From the NCBI RefSeq assembly GCF_003334785.1, contig NZ_QOWV01000002.1: a stretch of 64,000 nt of DNA; one strand, written 5' to 3'. The number at the start of each line of letters is the position of its first letter. The stretch's first letter is position 1. Below the pieces are notes generated by a model that worked only from the letters and a program-made list of their open reading frames with translations, made no database searches and was not told where the DNA came from. The translations under genes and the position numbers were made by a program. The DNA comes from Escherichia coli. GTDB taxonomy: Bacteria > Pseudomonadota > Gammaproteobacteria > Enterobacterales > Enterobacteriaceae. Below, piece by piece: positions 3,995 through 48,932 of this stretch.

Positions 3995-6028
3995 TTATTT
4001 CACCTGATGACCCGGTTTAGCACCAGCATCCGGGCTTAGCAGGAAGATATCTTTCCCGCCTGGACCGGCAGCCATCACCATGCCTTCGGAGATTCCAAAG
4101 CGCATTTTACGTGGTGCCAGGTTAGCCACCATAATGGTGTGACGACCAATCAGTGCCTGCGGATCCGGGTAGGCAGAACGAATACCGGAGAAGACATTGC
4201 GTTTTTCACCGCCGAGATCCAGTGTCAGGCGCAGCAGTTTGTCAGAACCTTCAACAAACTCTGCGTTTTCGATCAGCGCTACGCGCAGGTCAACTTTGGC
4301 GAAGTCGTCAAAGGTGATGGTTTCCTGAATCGGATCATCTGCCAGTGGGCCAGTAACTGGCGCGGCAGCTGCTTTCACTTCTTCTTTAGAGGCTTCCACC
4401 AGAGCTTCAACCTGTTTCATATCGATGCGGTTATACAGCGCCTTGAACGGATTCACTTTGTGGCCCAGCAGCGGTTGCTGGATACCATCCCAGGTCAGTT
4501 CCGTATTGAGGAAGGCTTCTGCACGCTCGGTCAGTTTCGGCAGTACCGGCTTCAGGTAAGTCATCAGCACGCGGAACAGGTTGATGCCCATTGAGCAAAT
4601 CGCCTGCAGGTCAGCATCGCGACCTTCCTGTTTTGCGACTACCCACGGAGCCTGTTCATCGACATAGCGGTTAGCCAGATCAGCCAGCGCCATGATTTCG
4701 CGCACAGCTTTACCAAATTCACGGCTTTCCCACGCTTCACCAATCACTTCAGCGGCATCAGTGAAGGTTTTGTACAACTGCGGGTCAGCCAGTTCGTTTG
4801 CCAGCACGCCGTCAAAACGTTTGTTGATAAAGCCCGCGTTACGGGAGGCCAGGTTAACCACTTTGTTAACGATATCGGCATTCACGCGCTGAACGAAATC
4901 CTCCAGGTTGAGATCGATATCATCAATGCGCGAAGAGAGTTTCGCAGTGTAGTAGTAACGCAGGCTGTCAGCGTCAAAATGATTCAGCCAGGTGCTGGCT
5001 TTAATAAAGGTGCCGCGAGACTTGGACATCTTCGCGCCGTTCACCGTCACATAGCCATGAACAAACAGGTTGGTCGGCTTGCGGAAGTTGCTGCCTTCCA
5101 GCATGGCAGGCCAGAACAGGCTGTGGAAGTAAACGATATCTTTACCGATGAAGTGGTACAGCTCGGCGGTGGAGTCTTTCTTCCAGTATTCATCGAAGCT
5201 TACGCTGTCGCCGCGCTTGTCGCACAGATTCTTGAAAGAACCCATGTAGCCAATCGGTGCGTCCAGCCAGACGTAGAAATATTTGCCCGGCGCGTTCGGA
5301 ATTTCAAAACCAAAGTATGGCGCGTCGCGGGAGATATCCCACTGTTGCAGGCCGGATTCAAACCACTCCTGCATTTTATTTGCCACCTGCTCCTGCAACG
5401 CACCGCTGCGGGTCCATGCCTGCAACATTTCGCTGAAAGAGGGCAGATCAAAGAAGAAGTGTTCAGAATCACGCATTACCGGCGTAGCGCCAGAAACCAC
5501 CGATTTCGGCTCGATCAATTCAGTCGGGCTGTAGGTCGCGCCGCAGACTTCGCAGTTATCGCCGTATTGATCCGGGGATTTACATTTCGGGCAGGTGCCT
5601 TTCACAAAACGGTCCGGCAGGAACATGCCTTTTTCCGGATCGTACAGCTGAGAGATGGTGCGGTTTTTAATAAAACCGTTCTCTTTCAGGCGAGAGTAGA
5701 TAAGTTCTGACAACTGGCGGTTCTCTTCGCTGTGCGTCGAGTGATAGTTGTCATAGCTGATGTTAAAGCCTGCGAAATCAGTCTGATGCTCCTGACTCAT
5801 TTCGCCAATCATCTGCTCCGGGGTGATACCAAGCTGCTGAGCTTTCAGCATGATCGGTGTACCGTGGGCATCGTCGGCGCAGATGAAGTTGACCTCGTGG
5901 CCGCGCATTCGCTGGTAACGGACCCAGACATCAGCCTGGATGTGCTCCAGCATATGGCCGAGGTGGATTGAGCCGTTAGCGTACGGCAGTGCGCACGTCA
6001 CCAGAATTTTCTTCGCGACTTGAGTCAT
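3995..6028 (-). CDS. metG: methionine--tRNA ligase
   Basis: Translation [31 protein letters not shown]... with HIGH-type motif (HLGH), KMSKS motif and C-terminal tRNA-binding domain; start moved to ATG at 6026-6028. Confidence 0.95.
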
Positions 6029-6159
6029 AGTAGGCATTACTTCTTAATAGTGAAAAGGGGTTAGATAGTACCAAATGGGAAAATGTTAAGTAAGTACTTC
6101 TCTATATTCTTCAGGTAAACTATCAGCTGATGGTTTATCTATACAAAAAAGGAGTCGGG

Positions 6160-7269
6160 ATGAACGAACAATCCCAGGCCAAATCACCAGAAGCCTTGCG
6201 CGCAATGGTCGCCGGGACACTGGCCAATTTTCAGCACCCAACCCTGAAGCATAACCTCACCACGCTGAAAGCGTTGCACCATGTCGCCTGGATGGACGAC
6301 ACGTTGCATGTGGAACTGGTTATGCCGTTTGTCTGGCATAGCGCGTTCGAAGAGTTAAAAGAGCAATGTAGCGCCGAACTGCTGCGCATCACCGGGGCGA
6401 AAGCTATCGACTGGAAACTGTCGCATAACATAGCCACTCTGAAACGCGTGAAGAATCAGCCGGGAATTAACGGTGTGAAGAACATTATCGCGGTGAGTTC
6501 CGGTAAAGGCGGCGTGGGTAAATCGTCCACGGCGGTAAACCTGGCACTGGCGCTGGCGGCAGAAGGGGCGAAAGTCGGCATTCTGGACGCCGATATCTAC
6601 GGCCCATCAATCCCAACAATGTTGGGCGCAGAAAATCAGCGTCCAACTTCGCCGGACGGTACCCATATGGCACCGATTATGTCTCATGGCCTGGCAACCA
6701 ATTCAATTGGTTATCTGGTCACTGACGACAATGCGATGGTGTGGCGTGGACCGATGGCGAGCAAGGCGTTAATGCAGATGTTGCAGGAAACCTTGTGGCC
6801 GGATCTCGACTATCTGGTGCTTGATATGCCGCCAGGCACCGGTGACATTCAATTGACGCTGGCGCAAAACATTCCAGTAACCGGTGCAGTCGTGGTCACC
6901 ACCCCGCAGGACATCGCGCTGATCGATGCGAAAAAAGGCATTGTGATGTTCGAGAAAGTCGAGGTTCCGGTGCTCGGTATTGTCGAGAACATGAGTGTGC
7001 ATATTTGCAGTAACTGTGGTCACCATGAACCGATTTTCGGTACCGGTGGTGCAGAGAAACTGGCTGAAAAATACCATACACAGCTGCTGGGGCAGATGCC
7101 GTTACACATCTCCTTACGTGAGGATCTCGATAAAGGTACGCCAACGGTTATCAGCCGTCCGGAGAGCGAATTTACCGCTATCTACCGCCAGCTGGCTGAC
7201 CGCGTTGCAGCTCAGCTCTACTGGCAGGGTGAAGTCATTCCAGGCGAGATTTCCTTCCGCGCGGTCTAA
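6160..7269 (+). CDS. apbC: Fe-S cluster carrier ATPase Mrp/ApbC
   Basis: MNEQSQAKSPEALRAMVAG...; P-loop SGKGGVGKS; GGAG Shine-Dalgarno before ATG at 6160. Confidence 0.9.
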   Translation: MNEQSQAKSPEALRAMVAGTLANFQHPTLKHNLTTLKALHHVAWMDDTLHVELVMPFVWHSAFEELKEQCSAELLRITGAKAIDWKLSHNIATLKRVKNQPGINGVKNIIAVSSGKGGVGKSSTAVNLALALAAEGAKVGILDADIYGPSIPTMLGAENQRPTSPDGTHMAPIMSHGLATNSIGYLVTDDNAMVWRGPMASKALMQMLQETLWPDLDYLVLDMPPGTGDIQLTLAQNIPVTGAVVVTTPQDIALIDAKKGIVMFEKVEVPVLGIVENMSVHICSNCGHHEPIFGTGGAEKLAEKYHTQLLGQMPLHISLREDLDKGTPTVISRPESEFTAIYRQLADRVAAQLYWQGEVIPGEISFRAV

Positions 7270-32883: not shown

Positions 32884-33030
32884 ATGAGCAAGCAAGTAAC
32901 ACTCATGACTGATGCGATTCCTTATCAGGAGTTCGCAAAACTAATAGGAAAATCGACATGAAGTGGTTTACTGAATTTGGCCACCTGAACAGAGGTGATA
33001 TGCTCACCTCAGAACAACACAGGTGCCATA

Positions 33031-34178
<1,148 letters not shown>

Positions 34179-34398
34179 CTCGGTGGCCAGTTTTTGTTGA
34201 CCACTTCAACAGGAGCGGTTCGTCGGATGATCGATAAAGGAAAGCTGCCTGTAATTGATATGACCGATCCACAATCAGCTTCAGGTCGTGCAGGTGAATA
34301 TTGGGTATACCTTCCGGCATGGAATAACGGACTAAAACTGGCTTATGAAAGCCGCCCTAAAGAGATTCGTGACGGCTGGTTGATGTGGTTAGGTCTCG

Positions 34399-35904: not shown

Positions 35905-36176
35905 GTATTCGTATTGAAATTGGCGAACGTTATGTCGTTACCAGTGACAGCTTTCAGTTTATTCTCCACGAGAAAAAGAGAGCGGAAAGCGGTAAAAACG
36001 CCGGTCAGGAATGGCTGGCGGTGGTTGGTTATTACCCGAAATTAAGCCAGCTCGTTTCCGGCCTGATGCATCACGATATTCTGACCGGAAGCGCAAAGTC
36101 TTTTGCTGATTTAAACGCGCAGGTTGAGCAACTCAGCAAGCGTTGTTCAGAGGCTTTTGGCTCATATGGCCGTTAA
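35901..36176 (+). CDS. hypothetical early protein (P2 orf83 position)
   Basis: 91-aa ORF overlapping the A start. Confidence 0.5.
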   Translation: MSIRIEIGERYVVTSDSFQFILHEKKRAESGKNAGQEWLAVVGYYPKLSQLVSGLMHHDILTGSAKSFADLNAQVEQLSKRCSEAFGSYGR

Positions 36177-38451
36177 AGCCTCCGGGCGTTTTGTCCCTCC
36201 GTCAGCATTTGCTGCAGGCACCGGTAAGGCGTTTACCGGTGCTTATGCATGGAACGCGCCACGCGAGGCTGTCGGGCGCGAAAGACCCCTTACACGTGAC
36301 GAGATGCGTCAGGTGCAAGGTGTTTTATCCACGATTAACCGCCTGCCTTACTTTTTGCGCTCGCTGTTTACGTCACGCTATGACTACATCCGGCGCAATA
36401 AAAGCCCGGTGCACGGGTTTTATTTCCTCACATCCACTTTTCAGCGTCGTTTATGGCCGCGCATTGAGCGTGTGAATCAGCGCCATGAAATGAACACCGA
36501 CGCGTCGAAGCTGTTTCTGGCTGAGCGTGACCACTATGCGCGCCTGCCGGGAATGAATGACAAGGAGCTGAAAAAGTTTGCCGCCCGTATCTCATCGCAG
36601 CTTTTCATGATGTATGAGGAACTCAGCGATGCCTGGGTGGATGCGCATGGCGAGAAAGAATCGCTGTTTACGGATGAGGCGCAGGCTCACCTCTATGGTC
36701 ATGTTGCTGGCGCTGCACGTGCTTTCAATATTTCCCCGCTTTACTGGAAAAAATACCGTAAAGGACAGATGACCACGAGGCAGGCATATTCTGCAATTGC
36801 CCGTCTGTTTAACGATGAGTGGTGGACTCATCAGCTTAAAGGCCAGCGTATGCGCTGGCATGAAGCGTTACTGATAGCTGTCGGGGAGGTCAATAAAGAC
36901 CGTTCTCCTTATGCCAGTAAACACGCCATTCGTGATGTGCGTGCGCGCCGCCAGGCAAATCTGGAATTTCTTAAATCGTGTGACCTTGAAAACAGGGAAA
37001 CCGGCGAGCGCATCGACCTTATCAGTAAGGTGATGGGCAGTATTTCTAATCCTGAAATTCGCCGGATGGAGCTGATGAACACCATTGCCGGTATTGAGCG
37101 TTACGCCGCCGCAGAGGGTGATGTGGGGATGTTTATCACGCTGACCGCGCCGTCAAAGTATCACCCGACACGTCAGGTCAGAAAAGGCGAAAGTAAAACC
37201 GTTCAGCTAAATTACGGCTGGAACGATGAGGCATTTAATCCAAAGGATGCGCAGCGTTATCTCTGCCGTATCTGGAGCCTGATGCGCACGGCATTCAAGG
37301 ATAATGACTTACAGGTCTACGGTTTGCGTGTCGTCGAGCCACACCACGACGGAACGCCGCACTGGCATATGATGCTTTTTTGTAATCCACGCCAGCGTAA
37401 CCAGATTATTGAAATCATGCGTCGCTACGCGCTCAAAGAGGATGGAGACGAAAGAGGAGCTGCGCGAAACCGTTTTCAGGCAAAACACCTTAACCGGGGC
37501 GGTGCTGCGGGGTATATCGCGAAATACATCTCAAAAAACATCGATGGCTATGCACTGGATGGTCAGCTCGATAACGACACCGGCAGGCCGCTGAAAGACA
37601 CAGCCGCGGCTGTTACCGCATGGGCGTCAACGTGGCGCATACCACAATTTAAAACGGTTGGCCTGCCGACAATGGGGGCTTACCGTGAACTACGCAAATT
37701 GCCCCGCGGCGTCAGCATTGCTGATGAGTTTGACGAGCGCGTCGAGGCTGCACGCGCCGCCGCAGACAGTGGTGATTTTGCGCTGTATATCAGCGCGCAG
37801 GGCGGGGCAAATGTCCCGCGCGATTGTCAGACTGTCAGGGTCGCCCGTAGTCCGTCGGATGACGTTAACGAGTACGAGGAAGAAGTCGAGAGAGTGGTCG
37901 GCATTTACGCGCCGCATCTCGGCGCGCGTCATATTCATATCACCAGAACGACGGACTGGCACATTGTGCCGAAAGTTCCGGTCGTTGAGCCTTTGACTTT
38001 AAAAAGCGGCATCGCCGCGCCTCGGAGTCCTGTCAATAACTGTGGAAAACTCACCGGTGGTGATACTTCGTTACCGGCTCCCACACCTTCTGAGCACGCC
38101 GCAGCAGTGCTTAATCTGGTTGATGACGGTGTTATCGAATGGAGTGACCCGGAGGTCGTGAGGGCGCTCAGAGGTGCATTAAAACACGGTCGGAGAACGC
38201 CAAGTCGTCAGCAAAGAAACGGAAGCCCGTTAAAACCACATGAAATTGCACCATCGGCCAGACTGACCCGGTCGGAAAGAATGCAAATTACCCGTATCCG
38301 CGTTGACCTTGCTCAGAACGGTATCAGGCCGCAGCGATGGGAGCTTGAGGCGCTGGCGCGTGGCGCGACCGTAAATTATGACGGGAAAAAATTCACGTAT
38401 CCGGTCGCTGATGAGTGGCCGGGATTCTCAACAGTAATGGAGTGGACATGA
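36166..38451 (+). CDS. A: P2 replication initiation protein A (rolling-circle nickase)
   Basis: 761 aa from ATG 36166, MAVKASGRFVPPSAFAAGTGKAFTGAYAW...; largest early-operon ORF. Confidence 0.9.
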   Translation: MAVKASGRFVPPSAFAAGTGKAFTGAYAWNAPREAVGRERPLTRDEMRQVQGVLSTINRLPYFLRSLFTSRYDYIRRNKSPVHGFYFLTSTFQRRLWPRIERVNQRHEMNTDASKLFLAERDHYARLPGMNDKELKKFAARISSQLFMMYEELSDAWVDAHGEKESLFTDEAQAHLYGHVAGAARAFNISPLYWKKYRKGQMTTRQAYSAIARLFNDEWWTHQLKGQRMRWHEALLIAVGEVNKDRSPYASKHAIRDVRARRQANLEFLKSCDLENRETGERIDLISKVMGSISNPEIRRMELMNTIAGIERYAAAEGDVGMFITLTAPSKYHPTRQVRKGESKTVQLNYGWNDEAFNPKDAQRYLCRIWSLMRTAFKDNDLQVYGLRVVEPHHDGTPHWHMMLFCNPRQRNQIIEIMRRYALKEDGDERGAARNRFQAKHLNRGGAAGYIAKYISKNIDGYALDGQLDNDTGRPLKDTAAAVTAWASTWRIPQFKTVGLPTMGAYRELRKLPRGVSIADEFDERVEAARAAADSGDFALYISAQGGANVPRDCQTVRVARSPSDDVNEYEEEVERVVGIYAPHLGARHIHITRTTDWHIVPKVPVVEPLTLKSGIAAPRSPVNNCGKLTGGDTSLPAPTPSEHAAAVLNLVDDGVIEWSDPEVVRALRGALKHGRRTPSRQQRNGSPLKPHEIAPSARLTRSERMQITRIRVDLAQNGIRPQRWELEALARGATVNYDGKKFTYPVADEWPGFSTVMEWT

Positions 38452-38777
38452 TGGCAAAAATTCACGAGGTAAAGCTGCACGCAAAATATTTCGACCTTGT
38501 ACTGGAAGGAAAGAAACGCGCAGAGTTTCGGAAAAAAGATCGTAATTATGAGCGCGGGGGCACGTTGATTTTGCATGAATGGGTGCAGGGTGTGTTTACG
38601 GGGCGAAAGGTTGAAGCCCGGATAACAGATGTTACTGACCTGTCAGACTGGCTGGAAGATTATGTCTTGCTGCACAGAATACTAGGTGAGATACTGCCGC
38701 TGACTGTCAAGCTGGCAGTATCCTCCACATTTTTTATAAATCTAAGGCGAAGAACGGTGGCAATATATTTGCTTTAA
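38451..38777 (+). CDS. small PUA/ASCH-like protein (P2 orf91 position)
   Basis: MAKIHEVKLHAKYFDLVLEGKKRAEFRKKDRNYERGGTLILHEW...; start overlaps the A stop; C-terminal end uncertain. Confidence 0.5.
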   Translation: MAKIHEVKLHAKYFDLVLEGKKRAEFRKKDRNYERGGTLILHEWVQGVFTGRKVEARITDVTDLSDWLEDYVLLHRILGEILPLTVKLAVSSTFFINLRRRTVAIYLL

Positions 38778-38815
38778 ATTGTAAATAAGCAAATTATTCT
38801 AAGCCACAAATGATA

Positions 38816-39577
38816 TCAATTGAGTATCGATTTTCGTTCGAATATAACCATAACGCCAAGCGTCAAATGTAAGTCATCTATATGTGATTCGTATTCATAT
38901 TGGTCAGCATCAGGAGGTAGTAAATGCTCTGCTGCTGTAAAAACATCAATTGTAACAGATATATCGTCTGGAATTTCTTCATTTAATTCGGATATGTATT
39001 TTTTATATTTGTTTTTTAATTTCCTTATCATGTCTTCCTTATGGTGGATTGTAGTGCAGTAATTTTTTTTAGTTGAATCATTGTATGAATGGAATGAACA
39101 GTTTAATGCTAGGCCAAGACTTGAATTTCCTGTAGGGCCTGTGTGTTTAAAGTATTCAAGATTTCTTCTTATGTCAGAAAATAAAAGACTTTTACAGGGG
39201 GCATTTCCTTTAACTTCTATTGCACATATTGGAATGTCGAAAAATGGTCTGCTGTCCAATATGGCAATATCAATTCTGCCTGATCTTGTTGTGTTTGTGT
39301 TTTTTCTGACAGTTTTTTTTGAGAATGTTTTTTGGGGGTCAGACCGTTTCGATAAAGGAACTGTTGCATTAATGAATTTATTTGTATGGTACTCAAATAT
39401 AACTTTGTAATCACCATGGCGAAAAGATTTTATTTCTAACAACGATAGACCTATAGATACGGTAGCTACATATTCAGTGTTTATTTTTGCACCAGACCTG
39501 AAATCCATTAAATAAGTTGCGTCGGCTGACTTTTTCATTCCATCTTTTACAGCTTTCACAATATCCATGTTATTCAT
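38816..39577 (-). CDS. tin: Tin-like protein (P2 T-even phage exclusion)
   Basis: 253-aa ORF in AT-rich DNA immediately downstream of old on the same strand, the position and size of P2 tin. Confidence 0.7.
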   Translation of the reverse strand: MNNMDIVKAVKDGMKKSADATYLMDFRSGAKINTEYVATVSIGLSLLEIKSFRHGDYKVIFEYHTNKFINATVPLSKRSDPQKTFSKKTVRKNTNTTRSGRIDIAILDSRPFFDIPICAIEVKGNAPCKSLLFSDIRRNLEYFKHTGPTGNSSLGLALNCSFHSYNDSTKKNYCTTIHHKEDMIRKLKNKYKKYISELNEEIPDDISVTIDVFTAAEHLLPPDADQYEYESHIDDLHLTLGVMVIFERKSILN

Positions 39578-39751
39578 ATCAACACCTTTTATATTCCAGA
39601 ATTATAAATCTTAATGATTGATTTGTTTGTGTGTTTAGGTTACTAGATTGACGTACTTATAGCACATTCTGATTTTGAAATCACCATCCTTGGGTAAAGC
39701 ACAGCCTATCACTATTGGTTTAGTACTGTGCTGTAATAGTATCAGATTAAG

Positions 39752-41512
39752 TTAAATCCATTTTATGAAATCTTCCATTTCATCATATTTTTTTATTACT
39801 GCTCTAACATCTTTGCTTTCATCACATAAACAATCTAAAAGACTATCCCATTCAGTTTGTTTTTTACCAAATCCATAAACAGCCTCTATATCACCGGATT
39901 TCCATATATAGATTCCGTTATCTTTCAATTTTTGATGTATTTCATGTATATGCTTTTGTGTTTTTTCATGGTTACATATTTTGATGAAGTCTTTGCTTGA
40001 AATGCTTTTGAATGACTCAAAAGTAGTAACTTTTGTATTTAAACTAAGCTCTCCTGAGTTGATTGATTCAATCAAAGCAGTCAATAGATTATCACATTCA
40101 GTACTAAGTAAGTCTTTATGCTCTGTTAATAGAATATTTGATAAGAAATCACAATCAGCTAGAATCCTTGTTTTTATGCCGATGGCATTGATGATTTGTG
40201 ACATCTTAAATAAACTACCCTTACCGTCAACGGCAACAATGCAGATTTTACTCGGGTTGAGTTCATGTCCGTTAATTTTTTTATAAAGTGCATATAGAAC
40301 GTTTGTCTCTGTTTTCCCTTCAACAAGCAAAACTTCTTCAGAAAATAAAAGGTATGATGAATTAGAAAGCGTGAATGCTGAGTGCAATTGCGGTGATGAA
40401 GATTTATATAATTCTTCGATTTTTTCAGATATAGTCTTCCTTGCTATGGTTCCATTAGAATCCTTACAAACCTGAATCGCATTTGCTGCATGCTTTGCAG
40501 AAAGCATACTGGCTGAGTGAGTTGATATTATAACCTGATACCCTGATTCACTTAATGTGACAAGTGATTCTCTGACAGAATTAATGGCTGAAGGGTGTAA
40601 ATATAACTCAGGTTCATCAATGAAAATCAAAGTGTTTGATTTTTTTGATTCGCTGTTTTCTTTTTTTATTTCGGCCAGGTATTGAATTAATGCCATTTGA
40701 ATGGAACGTTGTGTTCCGTGACCAAATCGGCTGATATCTCTCATTACCGGTTCATCTTCCCGAGACTCAAAAACTTTCAGAGTGCCGGATTTAAATATCT
40801 CATCTAATGTCGGTGTGGGAAAGTGTAACTTTACACTTACGTCGGGAAAAAATTGGTTTACTTTTTTATTTACGCCTGAGTCTATTTTATTAAGGCTTTC
40901 TAATCTGTTCTCACCGTTGTGAGAAAGATATTTACCTATTTCTGATATGTTTTTTGAAAATTTTTCTTCGTGTTCTTGTTTTATTTCAGAAACAATTGCG
41001 GAAAGTATCTTTCCTATTGTGGTCGTGTTTTTGCATTTTGTTGAGTCTTCGACAGCGTCAGACATTGCAGGGATATGAATTGGTTCCGGAAATATATTGG
41101 AGATTGCACCATCTATGCCGCCAGGGTTTTTCTTCCACGTGGTACCGTCATATACATCCAGACTTTTTTTGGCTTTTCCTGTTTCCTTATTAAATTCCTG
41201 TCTTCTTGCAAAGGTAAGAGTCCCGTCAATTATAAACGGAGCTATTTTTTGTTGATTCTCTTCTGTTAACAAAGACAGAGTATCATCTGTTATACCTTGA
41301 ATAACGCCTTCAACGGATACGGGGTGTGTAGGATCGTACACATCTGATTCTGAAATCAAAGAGCCATCTAACAGCCACTTAATTGCTAAGATAATATTTG
41401 ATTTTCCTGCGTTATTATAACCAACTAAAGCAGTGAAGGGGCGCAAAATAGCCGATGTTGACTTACAAGAACGAAAGTTGCTAATTGAAACTGAAGCAAG
41501 ACGTACAGTCAT
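39752..41512 (-). CDS. old: OLD-family nuclease (ABC-type ATPase plus Toprim domain)
   Basis: 586 aa; Walker A GYNNAGKSN, Walker B LIFIDEPELYLHP, C-terminal Toprim-like LLVEGKTE...AVDGKGS...ADCDF; AT-rich. Confidence 0.9.
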   Translation of the reverse strand: MTVRLASVSISNFRSCKSTSAILRPFTALVGYNNAGKSNIILAIKWLLDGSLISESDVYDPTHPVSVEGVIQGITDDTLSLLTEENQQKIAPFIIDGTLTFARRQEFNKETGKAKKSLDVYDGTTWKKNPGGIDGAISNIFPEPIHIPAMSDAVEDSTKCKNTTTIGKILSAIVSEIKQEHEEKFSKNISEIGKYLSHNGENRLESLNKIDSGVNKKVNQFFPDVSVKLHFPTPTLDEIFKSGTLKVFESREDEPVMRDISRFGHGTQRSIQMALIQYLAEIKKENSESKKSNTLIFIDEPELYLHPSAINSVRESLVTLSESGYQVIISTHSASMLSAKHAANAIQVCKDSNGTIARKTISEKIEELYKSSSPQLHSAFTLSNSSYLLFSEEVLLVEGKTETNVLYALYKKINGHELNPSKICIVAVDGKGSLFKMSQIINAIGIKTRILADCDFLSNILLTEHKDLLSTECDNLLTALIESINSGELSLNTKVTTFESFKSISSKDFIKICNHEKTQKHIHEIHQKLKDNGIYIWKSGDIEAVYGFGKKQTEWDSLLDCLCDESKDVRAVIKKYDEMEDFIKWI

Positions 41513-41706
41513 TATTTTTCCTTAAATGTGCTATTTGTATGCAATGAGTTCATGCGAAACGCTTTTTTACATTTTATAGTCGTTGCATTCAAGGGTGCAT
41601 GAGATTGCATTAAGGGAAACTGTGATATGGCTTGGCTTTTGACTGGAAATACTGATGGCTCATTAGTTTTATTAAGGTGCATTAAAACCGCCCCGTGAAG
41701 CGGGCG

Positions 41707-41725
41707 GGCGAGGCGGGGAAAGCAC
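41707..41725. other. cos cohesive-end sequence (19 nt) of the P2-type genome
   Basis: GGCGAGGCGGGGAAAGCAC in the GC-rich non-coding region between old and Q; matches the P2 cohesive end as I recall it. Confidence 0.6.
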
Positions 41726-41894
41726 TGCGCGCTGGCGGTGGTGCTGATTTTGTTTTTTCAGCGTCTGAGCGCGTCGTGAAGGCGCTTAGTCTGCCCGTTG
41801 AGGCGTTGGTGTGTCTGCGGGGTGTTTTGTGCGGTGGTGAGCGTGTGAGGGCGTGATGACGGGGTGTAAAAAAGCCGCCCGCAGGCGGCGATGT

Positions 41895-42929
41895 TCAGCC
41901 GTTGTCTGTGTCCAGTGAGTAGTTTTTAAAGCGGATGACCTCCTGACCGAGCCAGCCGTTTATTTCCCGAATCCTGTCCTGTAACGGGATAAGCTCATTG
42001 CGGACAAAGACCTTTGCCACTTTCTCAATATCACCCAGCGACCCGACGTTCTCCGGCTTGCCGCCCATCAACTGAAAGGGGATGCGGTGCGCGTCCAGCA
42101 GGTCAGCGGCGCTGGCTTTTTTGATATTAAAAAAATCGTCCTTCGTTGCCACTTCACTGAGCGGGATAATTTTAATGCCGTCAGCTTTCCCCTGCGGGGC
42201 ATAGAGAAACAGATTTTTAAAGTTGTTGCGGCCTTTTGACTTCACCATGTTTTCGCGAAGCATTTCGATATCGTTGCGATCCTGCACGGCATCGGTGACG
42301 TACATGATATATCCGGCATGAGCGCCGTTTTCGTAATACTTGCGGCGGAACAGCGTGGCCGACTCATTCAGCCAGGCAGAATTAAGGGCGCTGAGATATT
42401 CCGGCAGGCCGTACAGCTCCTGATTAATATCCGGCTCCAGCAGGTGAAACACGGAGCCGGGCGCGAAGGCTGTCGGCTCGTTGAAGGACGGCACCCACCA
42501 GTAAACATCCTCCTCCACACCACGGCGGGTATATTTTGCCGGTGAGGTTTCCAGTCTGATGACCTTACCGGTGGTGCTGTAACGCTTTTCCAGAAACGCA
42601 TTACCGAACACCAGAAAATCCAGCACAAAGCGGCTGAAATCCTGCTGGGAAAGCCACGGGTGCGGAATAAACGTTGAAGCCAGAATATTACGTTTGACGT
42701 AAATCGGTGAGCTGTGATGCACGGCAGCACGCAGGCTTTTTGCCAGACCGGTAAAGCTGACCGGTGGCTCATACCATCTGCCGTTACTGATGCACTCGAC
42801 GTAATCCAGAATGTCACGGCGGTCGAGTACCGGCACCGGCTCACCAAAGGTGAATGCCTCCATTTTTGGGGCACTGGCAGTCATTTTTTTTGCCGCAGGT
42901 TGCGGTGTTTTCCCTTTTTTCTTGCTCAT
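41895..42929 (-). CDS. Q: portal protein (P2 gpQ)
   Basis: 344-aa ORF at the gpQ position. Confidence 0.85.
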   Translation of the reverse strand: MSKKKGKTPQPAAKKMTASAPKMEAFTFGEPVPVLDRRDILDYVECISNGRWYEPPVSFTGLAKSLRAAVHHSSPIYVKRNILASTFIPHPWLSQQDFSRFVLDFLVFGNAFLEKRYSTTGKVIRLETSPAKYTRRGVEEDVYWWVPSFNEPTAFAPGSVFHLLEPDINQELYGLPEYLSALNSAWLNESATLFRRKYYENGAHAGYIMYVTDAVQDRNDIEMLRENMVKSKGRNNFKNLFLYAPQGKADGIKIIPLSEVATKDDFFNIKKASAADLLDAHRIPFQLMGGKPENVGSLGDIEKVAKVFVRNELIPLQDRIREINGWLGQEVIRFKNYSLDTDNG

Positions 42930-48146: not shown

Positions 48147-48932
48147 TTATGAGTGGTTTTTATTTGATGCTTTGTATTCTAAAACCTTCTTATTGGCGTA
48201 AAAGAATTTTGTATATGACAGGAATATAAGCAGACCTGAAATGAAATAGATTAGGGATATTATTAATAATGTTTTTCTGTGGCTGTTATTATCTTTAATC
48301 TCCTGACTTAACCATTCGGAGTCCTCCTCGTTTAGCTGTAAGAGCTTATTGCAGGCGATCTCAGGAAGTGTGTCTTTTATAAATACGTTTTGCAGACTCT
48401 TGCAATCGGCAAGGCTATAAGTTTTATTAAATTCAACTGTTTTATTTTTGAAGGATAAAAGAACTTTGTCACTATAAACATAGTACATCATATTTTTATA
48501 TGGTATACCTATGGCATCCCTTACTATAGCGGATTGTTCATTGTGTATGTAACATGCGAAGATAATATAAAGAATTCCGGCCAGGACTGCACTCATTGTT
48601 TTTGTGATGCATGGCGGTTCTGTTATGTCTCCCCAGAAGCGAGTAAGGAAAAAATCCGATGTTTTTAGTTTTCCATCAATCAGCCCCTGCTGTATCATTC
48701 TCACATCTTCGATGCCTGATACATTGATTCCGTTAAGTGTTTTAAATAGTTGAATATCGCGCCACTCGCGGTCCAGTCTTTTTAATTTTTTGTCTGAATA
48801 TCCAAATTTGAAATAATGTGCAATAAGCCTCATAAGGTTACTTTTACCAAAGCTAAAAAATGCTAATACTGCAAAGACCAAAAGATACAAAACGATTAGC
48901 TCCCACACATTAGTCACATTATAGCTGACCAT
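48147..48932 (-). CDS. hypothetical membrane protein (261 aa, 3 predicted transmembrane helices), foreign AT-rich cargo of unknown function
   Basis: ORF with strong Shine-Dalgarno (AAGGAGAG 7 nt before ATG); hydrophobic segments WELIVLYLLVFAVLAFFSF, MSAVLAGILYIIFACYI, KTLLIISLIYFISGLLIFLSY; AT-rich codon usage unlike the flanking phage genes. Confidence 0.6.
   Translation of the reverse strand: MVSYNVTNVWELIVLYLLVFAVLAFFSFGKSNLMRLIAHYFKFGYSDKKLKRLDREWRDIQLFKTLNGINVSGIEDVRMIQQGLIDGKLKTSDFFLTRFWGDITEPPCITKTMSAVLAGILYIIFACYIHNEQSAIVRDAIGIPYKNMMYYVYSDKVLLSFKNKTVEFNKTYSLADCKSLQNVFIKDTLPEIACNKLLQLNEEDSEWLSQEIKDNNSHRKTLLIISLIYFISGLLIFLSYTKFFYANKKVLEYKASNKNHS

Follow-up and report, generated by a model that had tools for sequence, protein, structure and literature searches.

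In the Escherichia coli DNA studied here, a P2-like prophage integrated between yegR and yegQ carries, at its gpA–cos variable hotspot, the canonical P2 lysogenic-conversion cassette old–tin; we assign this identification, which no observation contradicts, a probability of about 0.93. Across this region, the window, by which we mean the whole stretch of 64,000 nucleotides that was analysed, is 99.8% identical to positions 30268-33593 of P2, with 6 differences in 3326 bp. As a locus, the cassette is already known: it is a further copy of reference P2 old–tin, nearly base for base, and it adds little, in agreement with an earlier note on this DNA that had judged the locus not novel. One of its two products, Tin, is among the oldest known phage-exclusion proteins, and no work since 1997 has returned to its mechanism. 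A predicted fold and conserved motifs suggest that Tin is a nuclease, beyond a 'poison' of T4 gp32. This evidence provides a directly testable hypothesis, that of a gp32-dependent nuclease, and defines a wider protein family that has so far stood outside domain and defence databases.

The cassette and its setting

The P2 old–tin locus (AF063097 / NC_001895, 30646-33574) agrees with the locus in the window (Table 1) in its genes and their order, orientation, and spacing, in its promoter, and in its location, with orf91 on one side and cos on the other. The two co-oriented minus-strand genes reported in the earlier note were found as open reading frames of 586 and 253 codons, both of them full length and intact. 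Frames of this length are far beyond chance because stop codons are frequent in DNA of ~33% GC, and both genes are confirmed as real by their near-identity to those of an annotated phage. PADLOC and alignment to P2 Old and Tin, which the note had proposed as checks, matched both genes; the PADLOC model matches are full length for Old (1.3e-214) and for Tin (8.8e-98).

Table 1. Coordinates of the cassette, its island, and neighboring features in the window.
Feature	Position	Strand	Basis or remark
gpA replication endonuclease, left backbone flank	36166..38451	+	Same length as P2 gpA
orf91, C-terminally truncated DUF3850/ASCH-like gene	38448..38777	+	Backbone stops at 38671 within the ORF
Variable cargo island, P2 gpA–cos hotspot	38672..41677		3006 bp, AT-rich; similarity to P2-like phages breaks at edges
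tin, 253-aa T-even exclusion protein, predicted PD-(D/E)xK nuclease fold	38816..39577	-	ORF, P2 identity, PADLOC
old–tin intergenic spacer, 174 bp	39578..39751	-	tin ribosome-binding site AAGGTG, 6 nt before ATG
old, 586-aa Class 1 OLD-family ABC-ATPase/Toprim nuclease	39752..41512	-	ORF, P2 identity, PADLOC, Pfam
Island-borne old–tin promoter	41556..41592	-	-35-like TTGAAT (41592-41587), 17-nt spacer, -10-like TAAAAA (41569-41564)
cos, 19-nt cohesive end sequence, cosR/cosL joined in prophage	41707..41725	+	P2 cosR 33575-33593 and cosL 1-19 map here
tQ terminator after gpQ	41864..41889	-	Hairpin GCCGCCTGCGGGCGGC then T-run; equals P2 annotated tQ 160-181
gpQ portal protein, right backbone flank	41895..42929	-	ORF; aligns to P2 Q 187-1221

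The cassette occupies an island whose borders, 38671|38672 and 41677|41678, were drawn by comparison with the backbones of Wphi, vB_YpM_50, and NCTC11476. The AT-rich setting that had been noticed is real: GC content is 0.30-0.39 over 38600-41600, inside the island, and 0.52-0.58 outside it on both sides. The span originally proposed for the locus, 38778-41530, holds both coding sequences but misses the full extent of the island and the transcript starts at 41556 and 41558. Its placement between replication genes and cos is confirmed, with gpA and orf91 on one side and cos and gpQ on the other. The island is closer to P2 than is the backbone around it (99.8% versus ~97% identity); gpA differs from P2 gpA at 70 nucleotides and 17 amino acids, the tail-fibre module is different, and fun(Z) is absent. 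At the left border, the island edge truncates orf91 and supplies its last ~35 codons. The resulting product differs from P2 Orf91 by 1 amino acid. In two E. coli genomes, the equivalent gene carries the PGAP label 'incomplete; missing C-terminus', and NCTC11476 retains the full 147-aa version.

The identification of this slot as the known P2 variable defence hotspot matches the gpA–cos hotspot reported in Rousset et al. 2022 (PMC9122126). The further claim that the slot swaps in diverse systems also holds, since Wphi and vB_YpM_50 have other genes there: gp92, a cytosine methylase, gp96, and gp98 in the former, and a single 197-aa ORF in the latter. As in the window, the other cargos of the hotspot lie between conserved flanks and consist of AT-rich, self-promoted, leftward-transcribed defence genes. 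Among 75 phage records with matching flanks, the old–tin cargo is present in 2, both of which are P2 reference records. In complete E. coli genomes, the cassette is found in 17 of 5,426, and old and tin occur together in all 17 that carry either gene.

A single old–tin mRNA is annotated in the P2 record, and published work on the same protein describes transcription of the cassette as one mRNA in a P2 lysogen. A consensus promoter scan missed the annotated old–tin promoter, returning 4 promoter-like sites, as compared to 11 in shuffled sequences. Therefore, we used the mapped starts of the P2 record, in which positions 33426 and 33424 correspond to 41558 and 41556 of the window. The hexamers given in Table 1 were assigned by reading the sequence and should be regarded as putative. 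A 56-aa ORF on the minus strand (41512..41682) overlaps the promoter and leader, is unannotated in P2, and is unsupported; we consider it spurious. Given that 38300-42000 has no Rfam match at E<=1, there is no evidence for a regulatory RNA in the spacers. On the other side of cos, tQ shields the cassette from the leftward transcription of the late P operon.

Old and its probable independence from Tin

Old is identical to P2 Old (AAD03309) at 586 of 586 residues, and the two nucleotide changes in its gene are both synonymous. The Walker A and Walker B motifs quoted in the earlier note, LVGYNNAGKSNII and LIFIDEPELYLHPS, are both in the 586-aa translation. The note's reading of this protein as an OLD-family ATPase-nuclease with a C-terminal Toprim region is borne out by its identity to P2 Old and by Pfam matches to AAA_15 (4.7e-18), AAA_21, SMC_N, and OLD-like_TOPRIM (PF20469; residues 389-455, 4.2e-17). 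The ABC ATPase residues of the Walker A, Walker B, D-loop, and H-loop (K37, D299, H306, and H332) are present, as are the two-metal Toprim residues and catalytic lysine (E398, E402, D453, D455, D541, E543, and K550). These are the residues mutated by Schiltz et al. (PMC7049728), and 11 of 11 are kept here.

The activity of this protein has been described in detail for P2 (PMC12445682; bioRxiv 10.64898/2026.07.10.737580; PMC7049728). At rest, P2 Old is an inactive tetramer. It is activated by loss of RecBCD, caused for example by lambda Gam, and also by ssDNA, aberrant or hairpin-forming, at phage origins undergoing replication. The active protein, driven by ATP hydrolysis, cleaves tRNA-Thr(UGU), as well as some other tRNAs, in the anticodon stem, which stops translation and leads to abortive infection. 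Lambda exclusion and the killing of recBC cells via tRNA cleavage have been published for a protein identical to the one encoded here (same sources). Old shares its combination of ABC-ATPase and Toprim with the Class 1 OLD protein of Thermus scotoductus (PDB 6P74), with GajA of Gabija, and with AriA/AriB of PARIS, and AriA and GajA are its secondary PADLOC matches. These relatives are distant in sequence, with values of 1.3e-10 for 6P74 and ~1e-9 for GajA over part of the protein. Unlike the OLD relatives compared, P2 Old targets a tRNA anticodon stem and needs no helicase partner (PMC12445682; bioRxiv 10.64898/2026.07.10.737580). No partner ORF of the kinds that mark the other OLD classes, a UvrD/helicase (Class 2), a reverse transcriptase (Class 3), or GajB (Class 4), is present in 38672-41677, where tin is the only other gene.

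Old and Tin probably act as two autonomous defences carried on one transcript. It could be argued that they form one obligate two-component system, with Tin as, for example, the sensor or effector partner of Old, given that the two genes share an mRNA, that their co-occurrence in the 17 E. coli genomes leaves room for a functional interaction within the cassette, and that many OLD-family proteins act with a partner, GajB and AriB being examples. We regard such an obligate system as very improbable. Outside E. coli, Tin homologues were examined in five distinct settings, namely Pectobacterium, Klebsiella aerogenes, Morganella, and two further prophages, and in none of these does an Old, AAA_15, or Toprim gene lie within 6 kb. 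Old expressed alone from a plasmid is sufficient for interference with lambda and for tRNA cleavage (PMC7049728; PMC12445682), and Old and Tin have been assayed as separate systems whose phage spectra differ (PMC8594841). The more distant Tin relatives are found mostly on metagenome contigs of 2-3 kb, so their gene context is barely informative.

Tin as a predicted nuclease

The assignment of the 253-aa protein as Tin is upheld: it is identical to P2 Tin at 251 of 253 residues, the PADLOC Tin profile is covered over 1-239 of 239 positions, and the protein matches phrog_9821 at 1.3e-176. The two differences are I84T and S221P. Position 84 is hydrophobic in most homologues and lies within a low-confidence hypervariable loop. 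The same T84/P221 allele is present in E. coli 101EVA. In published tests, every Tevenvirinae phage tried was sensitive to Tin and no other phage was, and the phenotype described is a gp32-dependent block of T-even DNA replication (PMC8594841). In the model of Mosig et al. 1997, as represented in later papers, Tin is non-enzymatic and 'poisons' T4 gp32.

Sequence searches place Tin in no Pfam or NCBIfam family. Tin has no Pfam match even at E<=10, its NCBIfam matches are noise only, and comparison to PDB sequences, both as a single sequence and as a profile, also gave noise only; none of 49 relatives of Tin (0/49) has any Pfam family match. The nuclease assignment is thus made from structure prediction and motif conservation, not from membership in a sequence profile. 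The AF2 model of Tin has a pLDDT of 81.3 and a pTM of 0.81, and its topology consists of a helix (34-47), three strands (57-64, 101-108, and 115-125), a helix (129-144), and a strand (156-166). This predicted core corresponds to the restriction-endonuclease-like alpha-beta-beta-beta-alpha-beta fold. In Foldseek, the full-length matches at TM 0.7-0.76 are labelled 'Restriction endonuclease', 'PD-(D/E)XK nuclease', and 'HamA C-terminal domain'.

Conservation among the relatives falls on the same core. While mean column identity across the 49 relatives, which are 16-46% identical to Tin, is 28%, seven residues are invariant in all of them: E35, E62, D103, E121, K123, D135, and R138. The motifs GRID103I and CAIE121VK123G do not vary among 20 close relatives or among the 49 distant ones, and they place a D ... 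(D/E)-x-K motif on predicted strands 2 and 3 (101-108 and 115-125). We infer that Tin is a PD-(D/E)xK-fold protein in which the putative catalytic signature, D103 and E121-x-K123, plus E35 and E62, is intact. The most likely mode of action would be gp32- or ssDNA-dependent cleavage of nucleic acid at phage replication intermediates, not a purely stoichiometric 'poisoning'.

The known PD-(D/E)xK proteins that Tin would join, including the BamHI/OkrAI/BglII/BstYI group, NucC, and the C-terminal domain of Hachiman HamA, are not recognizable as its relatives by sequence: Tin has no detectable sequence similarity to any solved structure. Tin also differs from them in having a disordered insert (71-97) and a C-terminal extension (176-250), and no methyltransferase partner, cyclic-nucleotide sensor domain, or helicase partner was seen. 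A comparison of the cassette to a 93% variant gives dN/dS values of 0.04 for old and 0.41 for tin, with the Tin signature residues kept. NCTC11476 carries a Tin of 82% identity. The Tin-like family comprises ~200 clusters at 50% identity, for which there is no Pfam or NCBIfam model.

Considered jointly, these data lead us to propose, tentatively and at slightly less than even odds, that Tin is an active PD-(D/E)xK nuclease that is triggered or recruited by gp32 or by gp32-coated ssDNA. Tin would then be the founder of an uncurated family of ~250-aa single-gene defence nucleases, carried as morons by prophages, by satellites, and within defence islands, and its hypervariable loop (76-100) and C-terminal part might serve as the phage-sensing surface, one that evolves ~10x faster by dN/dS than the co-transcribed old gene. 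The classical model holds instead that Tin is catalytically inert and has no action beyond binding and 'poisoning' T4 gp32, which would make the PD-(D/E)xK fold a mere scaffold. We consider this model somewhat doubtful. The invariance of D103, E121, and K123, together with E35 and E62, in 49 members down to 16% identity is hard to reconcile with a scaffold, and the distribution of conservation, which is highest in the core (101-150) and gives way to variability in the loop and C-terminal parts, also counts against an inert one. In the searchable literature, neither a paper on a Tin nuclease, trigger, or structure nor biochemical data on Tin nuclease activity were found, and no mention of the predicted fold was met there.

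A defence cassette in a defective prophage

The chromosomal flanks of the prophage are both 100% identical to E. coli genomes. The prophage itself is defective: an insertion sequence (IS) lies in cox and a ~3-kb deletion has taken the lysis and head/tail-completion genes, in addition to the absence of fun(Z). The description of the defence cargo as active-looking holds for the cassette, whose genes are intact, but the surrounding prophage is not intact. We consider it highly improbable that the cassette is a decaying relic, with old–tin silent or non-functional because the prophage around it is defective. Besides the damage to cox and to the lysis and morphogenesis genes, a relic might be suspected from the two amino-acid changes in Tin relative to P2 and from the three substitutions among the six that are specific to the window, one of which, at 41554, is in the 5' leader, 2-4 nt downstream of the transcript starts. 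However, both ORFs are full length, the changes in old are synonymous, so that its product is the experimentally active Old, and the T84/P221 allele of Tin is common to E. coli 101EVA. The promoter hexamers and the transcript-start bases are unchanged from P2, and lysogenic-conversion genes are independent of an inducible prophage. The canonical P2 cassette stands here as an intact defence unit inside a prophage that is no longer able to excise or lyse, and its retention fits host domestication of phage cargo.

The IS in cox is IS911-like, which prompted us to consider Shigella as the host; the identity of both chromosomal flanks to E. coli genomes speaks against this. A 9-bp target duplication suggested by BLAST overlaps was rejected upon reading of the junctions, which gave a duplication of 3 bp (ACA), typical of the IS3 family.

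Identity and borders of the old-tin cassette

The earlier note had described, at 38778-41530, two co-oriented minus-strand genes in AT-rich DNA, an OLD-family ATPase-nuclease gene and tin, and our analysis bears this description out. Both genes are present in the ORF list, separated by 174 bp, and GC content is 0.30-0.39 across ~38600-41600 compared with 0.52-0.58 in the flanks on both sides. The two motifs quoted for the upstream gene, GYNNAGKSN and FIDEPELYLHP, are found in its 586-aa translation, in which Pfam recognizes an AAA_15/AAA_21 ABC-type ATPase and an OLD-like TOPRIM domain (residues 389-455, 4.2e-17). The PADLOC profiles for Old (1.3e-214) and, for the 253-aa protein, Tin (8.8e-98) are matched over their full lengths.

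In a megablast search of phage records, bacteriophage P2 (AF063097, 30268-33593) matched at 99.8% identity across 3326 bp; this stretch is annotated with orf91, tin, old, the "old-tin mRNA" transcript starts and cosR. Compared base by base, the two sequences differ at 6 positions. Alignment to the P2 proteins, a check that the note itself had named, shows that all 586 residues of Old are the same, both nucleotide changes in old being synonymous, while Tin carries two substitutions, I84T and S221P, and Orf91 differs at one residue. Given this near-identical locus on record and a published hotspot, the old-tin locus is already known, as the note had said. The flanking gpA gene is only ~97% identical to that of P2 (70 nucleotide and 17 amino acid changes); therefore, the phage in the window is a P2 relative with the same cargo and not P2 itself.

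On the plus strand, each of the six differences (38560, 38917, 39327, 40844, 40874 and 41554) has A in P2 and G in the window, a T-to-C change on the coding strand of old and tin. E. coli 101EVA shares three of them; the other three, in a comparison of four sequences, are unique to the window. With so few sites, this one-directional bias may be due to chance.

Features of the cassette, its prophage and related loci (window coordinates unless L-numbered)
Feature	Coordinates	Strand	Details
Prophage	~31235-61615		between yegR and yegQ
IS3-family element	32959-34208		1250 bp, in cox, after P2 position 26079
orf91	38448-38777		contains left backbone border
Cargo island	38672-41677		3006 bp
tin	38816-39577	-	253 aa, ORF list
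old	39752-41512	-	586 aa, ORF list
old-tin transcript starts	41558, 41556		mapped from P2 record; within island
Putative old-tin promoter hexamers	upstream of 41558/41556	-	-35-like TTGAAT, -10-like TAAAAA, 17 nt apart, read from sequence
Hairpin, then TTTT	41688-41707	-	GC-rich, CCGCCCGCTTCACGGGGCGG
cos	41707-41725
tQ terminator	~41864-41889		after gpQ; P2 annotation
Deletion junction	~47652		equivalent of P2 5950-8942 missing
S-V moron	48147-48932	-	261 aa; see also L012 (other DNA compared) 6001-6804
Tail-fibre module	51337-54824		in place of H-G-fun(Z)
Alternative fibre and chaperone ORFs	52647-53087	+
	53059-53661	-
	53661-54203	-
Serine invertase	54225-54824
P0050 neighbourhood	L021 324-1629		metagenome contig
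P0050 neighbourhood	L022 234-1539		metagenome contig

Since the backbone shared with Wphi, vB_YpM_50 and NCTC11476 stops at 38671 and restarts at 41678, the cargo island can be delimited. The span reported earlier does hold both genes, but the island is wider and the promoter lies beyond the reported end. The hexamers listed in the table, for which a generic promoter scan made no call, would be the promoter of the transcript. On this side of the island, the positions of cos and of tQ after gpQ indicate that the cassette is insulated from late leftward transcription. The hairpin, for which the P2 record has no annotation, is in backbone DNA, adjoining the end of cos and a short way upstream of the old promoter. 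It may belong to the packaging signal or act as a further insulator from late transcription. An Rfam scan of 38300-42000 gave no family match.

The left border falls within orf91. PGAP labels its equivalent in two E. coli genomes "incomplete; missing C-terminus", and E. coli NCTC11476 (L016, 2442-2885) has a full 147-aa DUF3850 gene and 235 extra bp beside a 93%-identical tin-old locus. Thus, P2 orf91 is a DUF3850/ASCH-like gene that has lost its original C-terminal end and is fused to the island, which supplies its last codons.

A variable slot in a defective prophage

The position of the locus agrees with the gpA-gpQ cos-proximal hotspot of P2 reported by Rousset et al. 2022 (PMC9122126), who re-cloned P2 old-tin and confirmed broad protection; the earlier assignment to this hotspot therefore stands. 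The note's claim that the slot swaps cargo also holds: in Wphi it is filled by gp92, a cytosine methylase, gp96 and gp98, and in vB_YpM_50 by a different small ORF. Among 75 matching phage records, the cargo is present in only the two P2 reference entries, the rest being flank matches alone. The cassette occurs in 17 of 5,426 complete E. coli genomes (14 at >=99% identity, 3 at 93-94%), every one of which has both genes.

The S-V moron is AT-rich (GC 0.33-0.37) and encodes a P2 Orf30 homologue with hydrophobic segments, which has no PADLOC match and hits only a PHROG of unknown function. Another P2-like phage holds a Tin homologue between gpS and gpV, so that the S-V interval may represent an additional cargo site.

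Both flanks of the prophage match, at 100% identity, E. coli genomes in which the site is empty; in E. coli JKHS016, ~27 bp lie between them. We take the yegR-yegQ region to be the site of the P2 remnant (ogrK/yegZ) in E. coli K-12. Three defects are apparent. The element in cox would be expected to prevent excision and the lytic switch; its OrfA/OrfB resemble those of IS911, its ends are TGAAGTGG...CCACTTCA, and its target duplication is 3 bp long (ACA). A clean deletion of ~3 kb has removed L, X, holin Y, endolysin K, lysA/B/C, R and the first codons of S, so the prophage cannot complete virions; short microhomology is present at its junction. Finally, H-G-fun(Z) is replaced by a module of opposed fibre ORFs and a serine invertase that resembles an invertible host-range switch of the Mu/P1 type; this prophage lacks the fun(Z) defence gene. 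The prophage can probably neither excise nor lyse. Given these defects, the description "active-looking defence cargo" fits the cassette but not the prophage around it.

Old and Tin as probably autonomous defences

Because Old is identical in sequence to the P2 protein, published results for P2 Old apply directly. Its ATPase residues K37, D299, H306 and H332 and Toprim residues E398, E402, D453, D455, D541, E543 and K550, all required to kill recBC cells (Schiltz et al. 2020, PMC7049728), are present. Inhibition of RecBCD by lambda Gam activates Old, which leaves DNA intact and, with ATP hydrolysis, cuts both strands of the tRNA-Thr(UGU) anticodon stem and some other tRNAs, leading to translation arrest from which phage-encoded tRNA-Thr rescues cells (Govande et al. 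2025, PMC12445682). According to a 2026 preprint (10.64898/2026.07.10.737580), an inactive Old tetramer opens to active dimers; in recB cells the protein binds aberrant DNA, and it recognizes ssDNA hairpins at the lambda origin.

Plasmid-borne Old alone reproduces the Old phenotype (PMC7049728, PMC12445682). Tin homologues, in turn, occur in five different settings, in none of which a gene for Old, AAA_15 or Toprim lies within 6 kb. One is in an AlpA island of Pectobacterium and one stands where a tail module ends; a third belongs to a P4-like element of Klebsiella aerogenes that also has AlpA and a DUF927 primase; the remaining two are in a Morganella lambdoid prophage, between int and tail fibre, and in the P2-like phage with a Tin homologue between gpS and gpV. 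Together, these observations indicate that Old and Tin are two autonomous defences on one transcript.

Between the window and the 93% variant of NCTC11476, dN/dS is 0.04 for old (98.5% amino acid identity) and 0.41 for tin (82%). The differences in Tin are concentrated in loop 76-100 and towards the C-terminus (residues 176-225), leaving the signature residues untouched. Faster evolution of Tin than of Old would be consistent with an arms race at a surface that contacts the phage. Of the two substitutions relative to P2, both common to E. coli 101EVA, I84T falls in the variable loop, and proline at the S221P site also occurs in another Tin homologue.

A predicted nuclease fold in Tin

Tin is still described, in papers citing Mosig 1997, as a "poison" of the T-even ssDNA-binding protein gp32, and in the BASEL survey (PMC8594841) all Tevenvirinae and no other tested phages were Tin-sensitive. 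Tin matches no Pfam or NCBIfam family and, by sequence, no solved structure; its close homologues form only 23 clusters, all from Enterobacterales. An AlphaFold2 model built with 20 homologues (pLDDT 81, pTM 0.81) is confident except in loop 71-97. Searched against AFDB50 with Foldseek, the model has full-length matches (TM 0.7-0.76) that bear the annotations "Restriction endonuclease", "PD-(D/E)XK nuclease superfamily" and "HamA C-terminal domain".

When 1.84 billion representatives were searched with a profile, 199 clusters emerged at E<=1e-3, mostly full-length at ~250 aa. In an alignment of 49 members that share 16-46% identity with Tin (column identity averaging 28%; 0/49 matched by Pfam), the only invariant residues are E35, E62, D103, E121, K123, D135 and R138. 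The model places D103 on core strand 2 and E121-V-K123 on core strand 3, which is the classical PD-(D/E)xK arrangement. The predicted structure leads us to infer that Tin adopts a nuclease fold and has kept its active site, in which case its gp32 dependence would more likely reflect triggering or recruitment than simple sequestration. We found no paper proposing Tin as a nuclease within the searches run; this fold and the wider uncurated family are the only potentially new element here, and are general to Tin rather than specific to the window. On two metagenome contigs, the gene for a distant family member, P0050, is immediately followed by a ThsB-type TIR gene and an 8xMP gene, a hint that the wider family may occur in defence islands.
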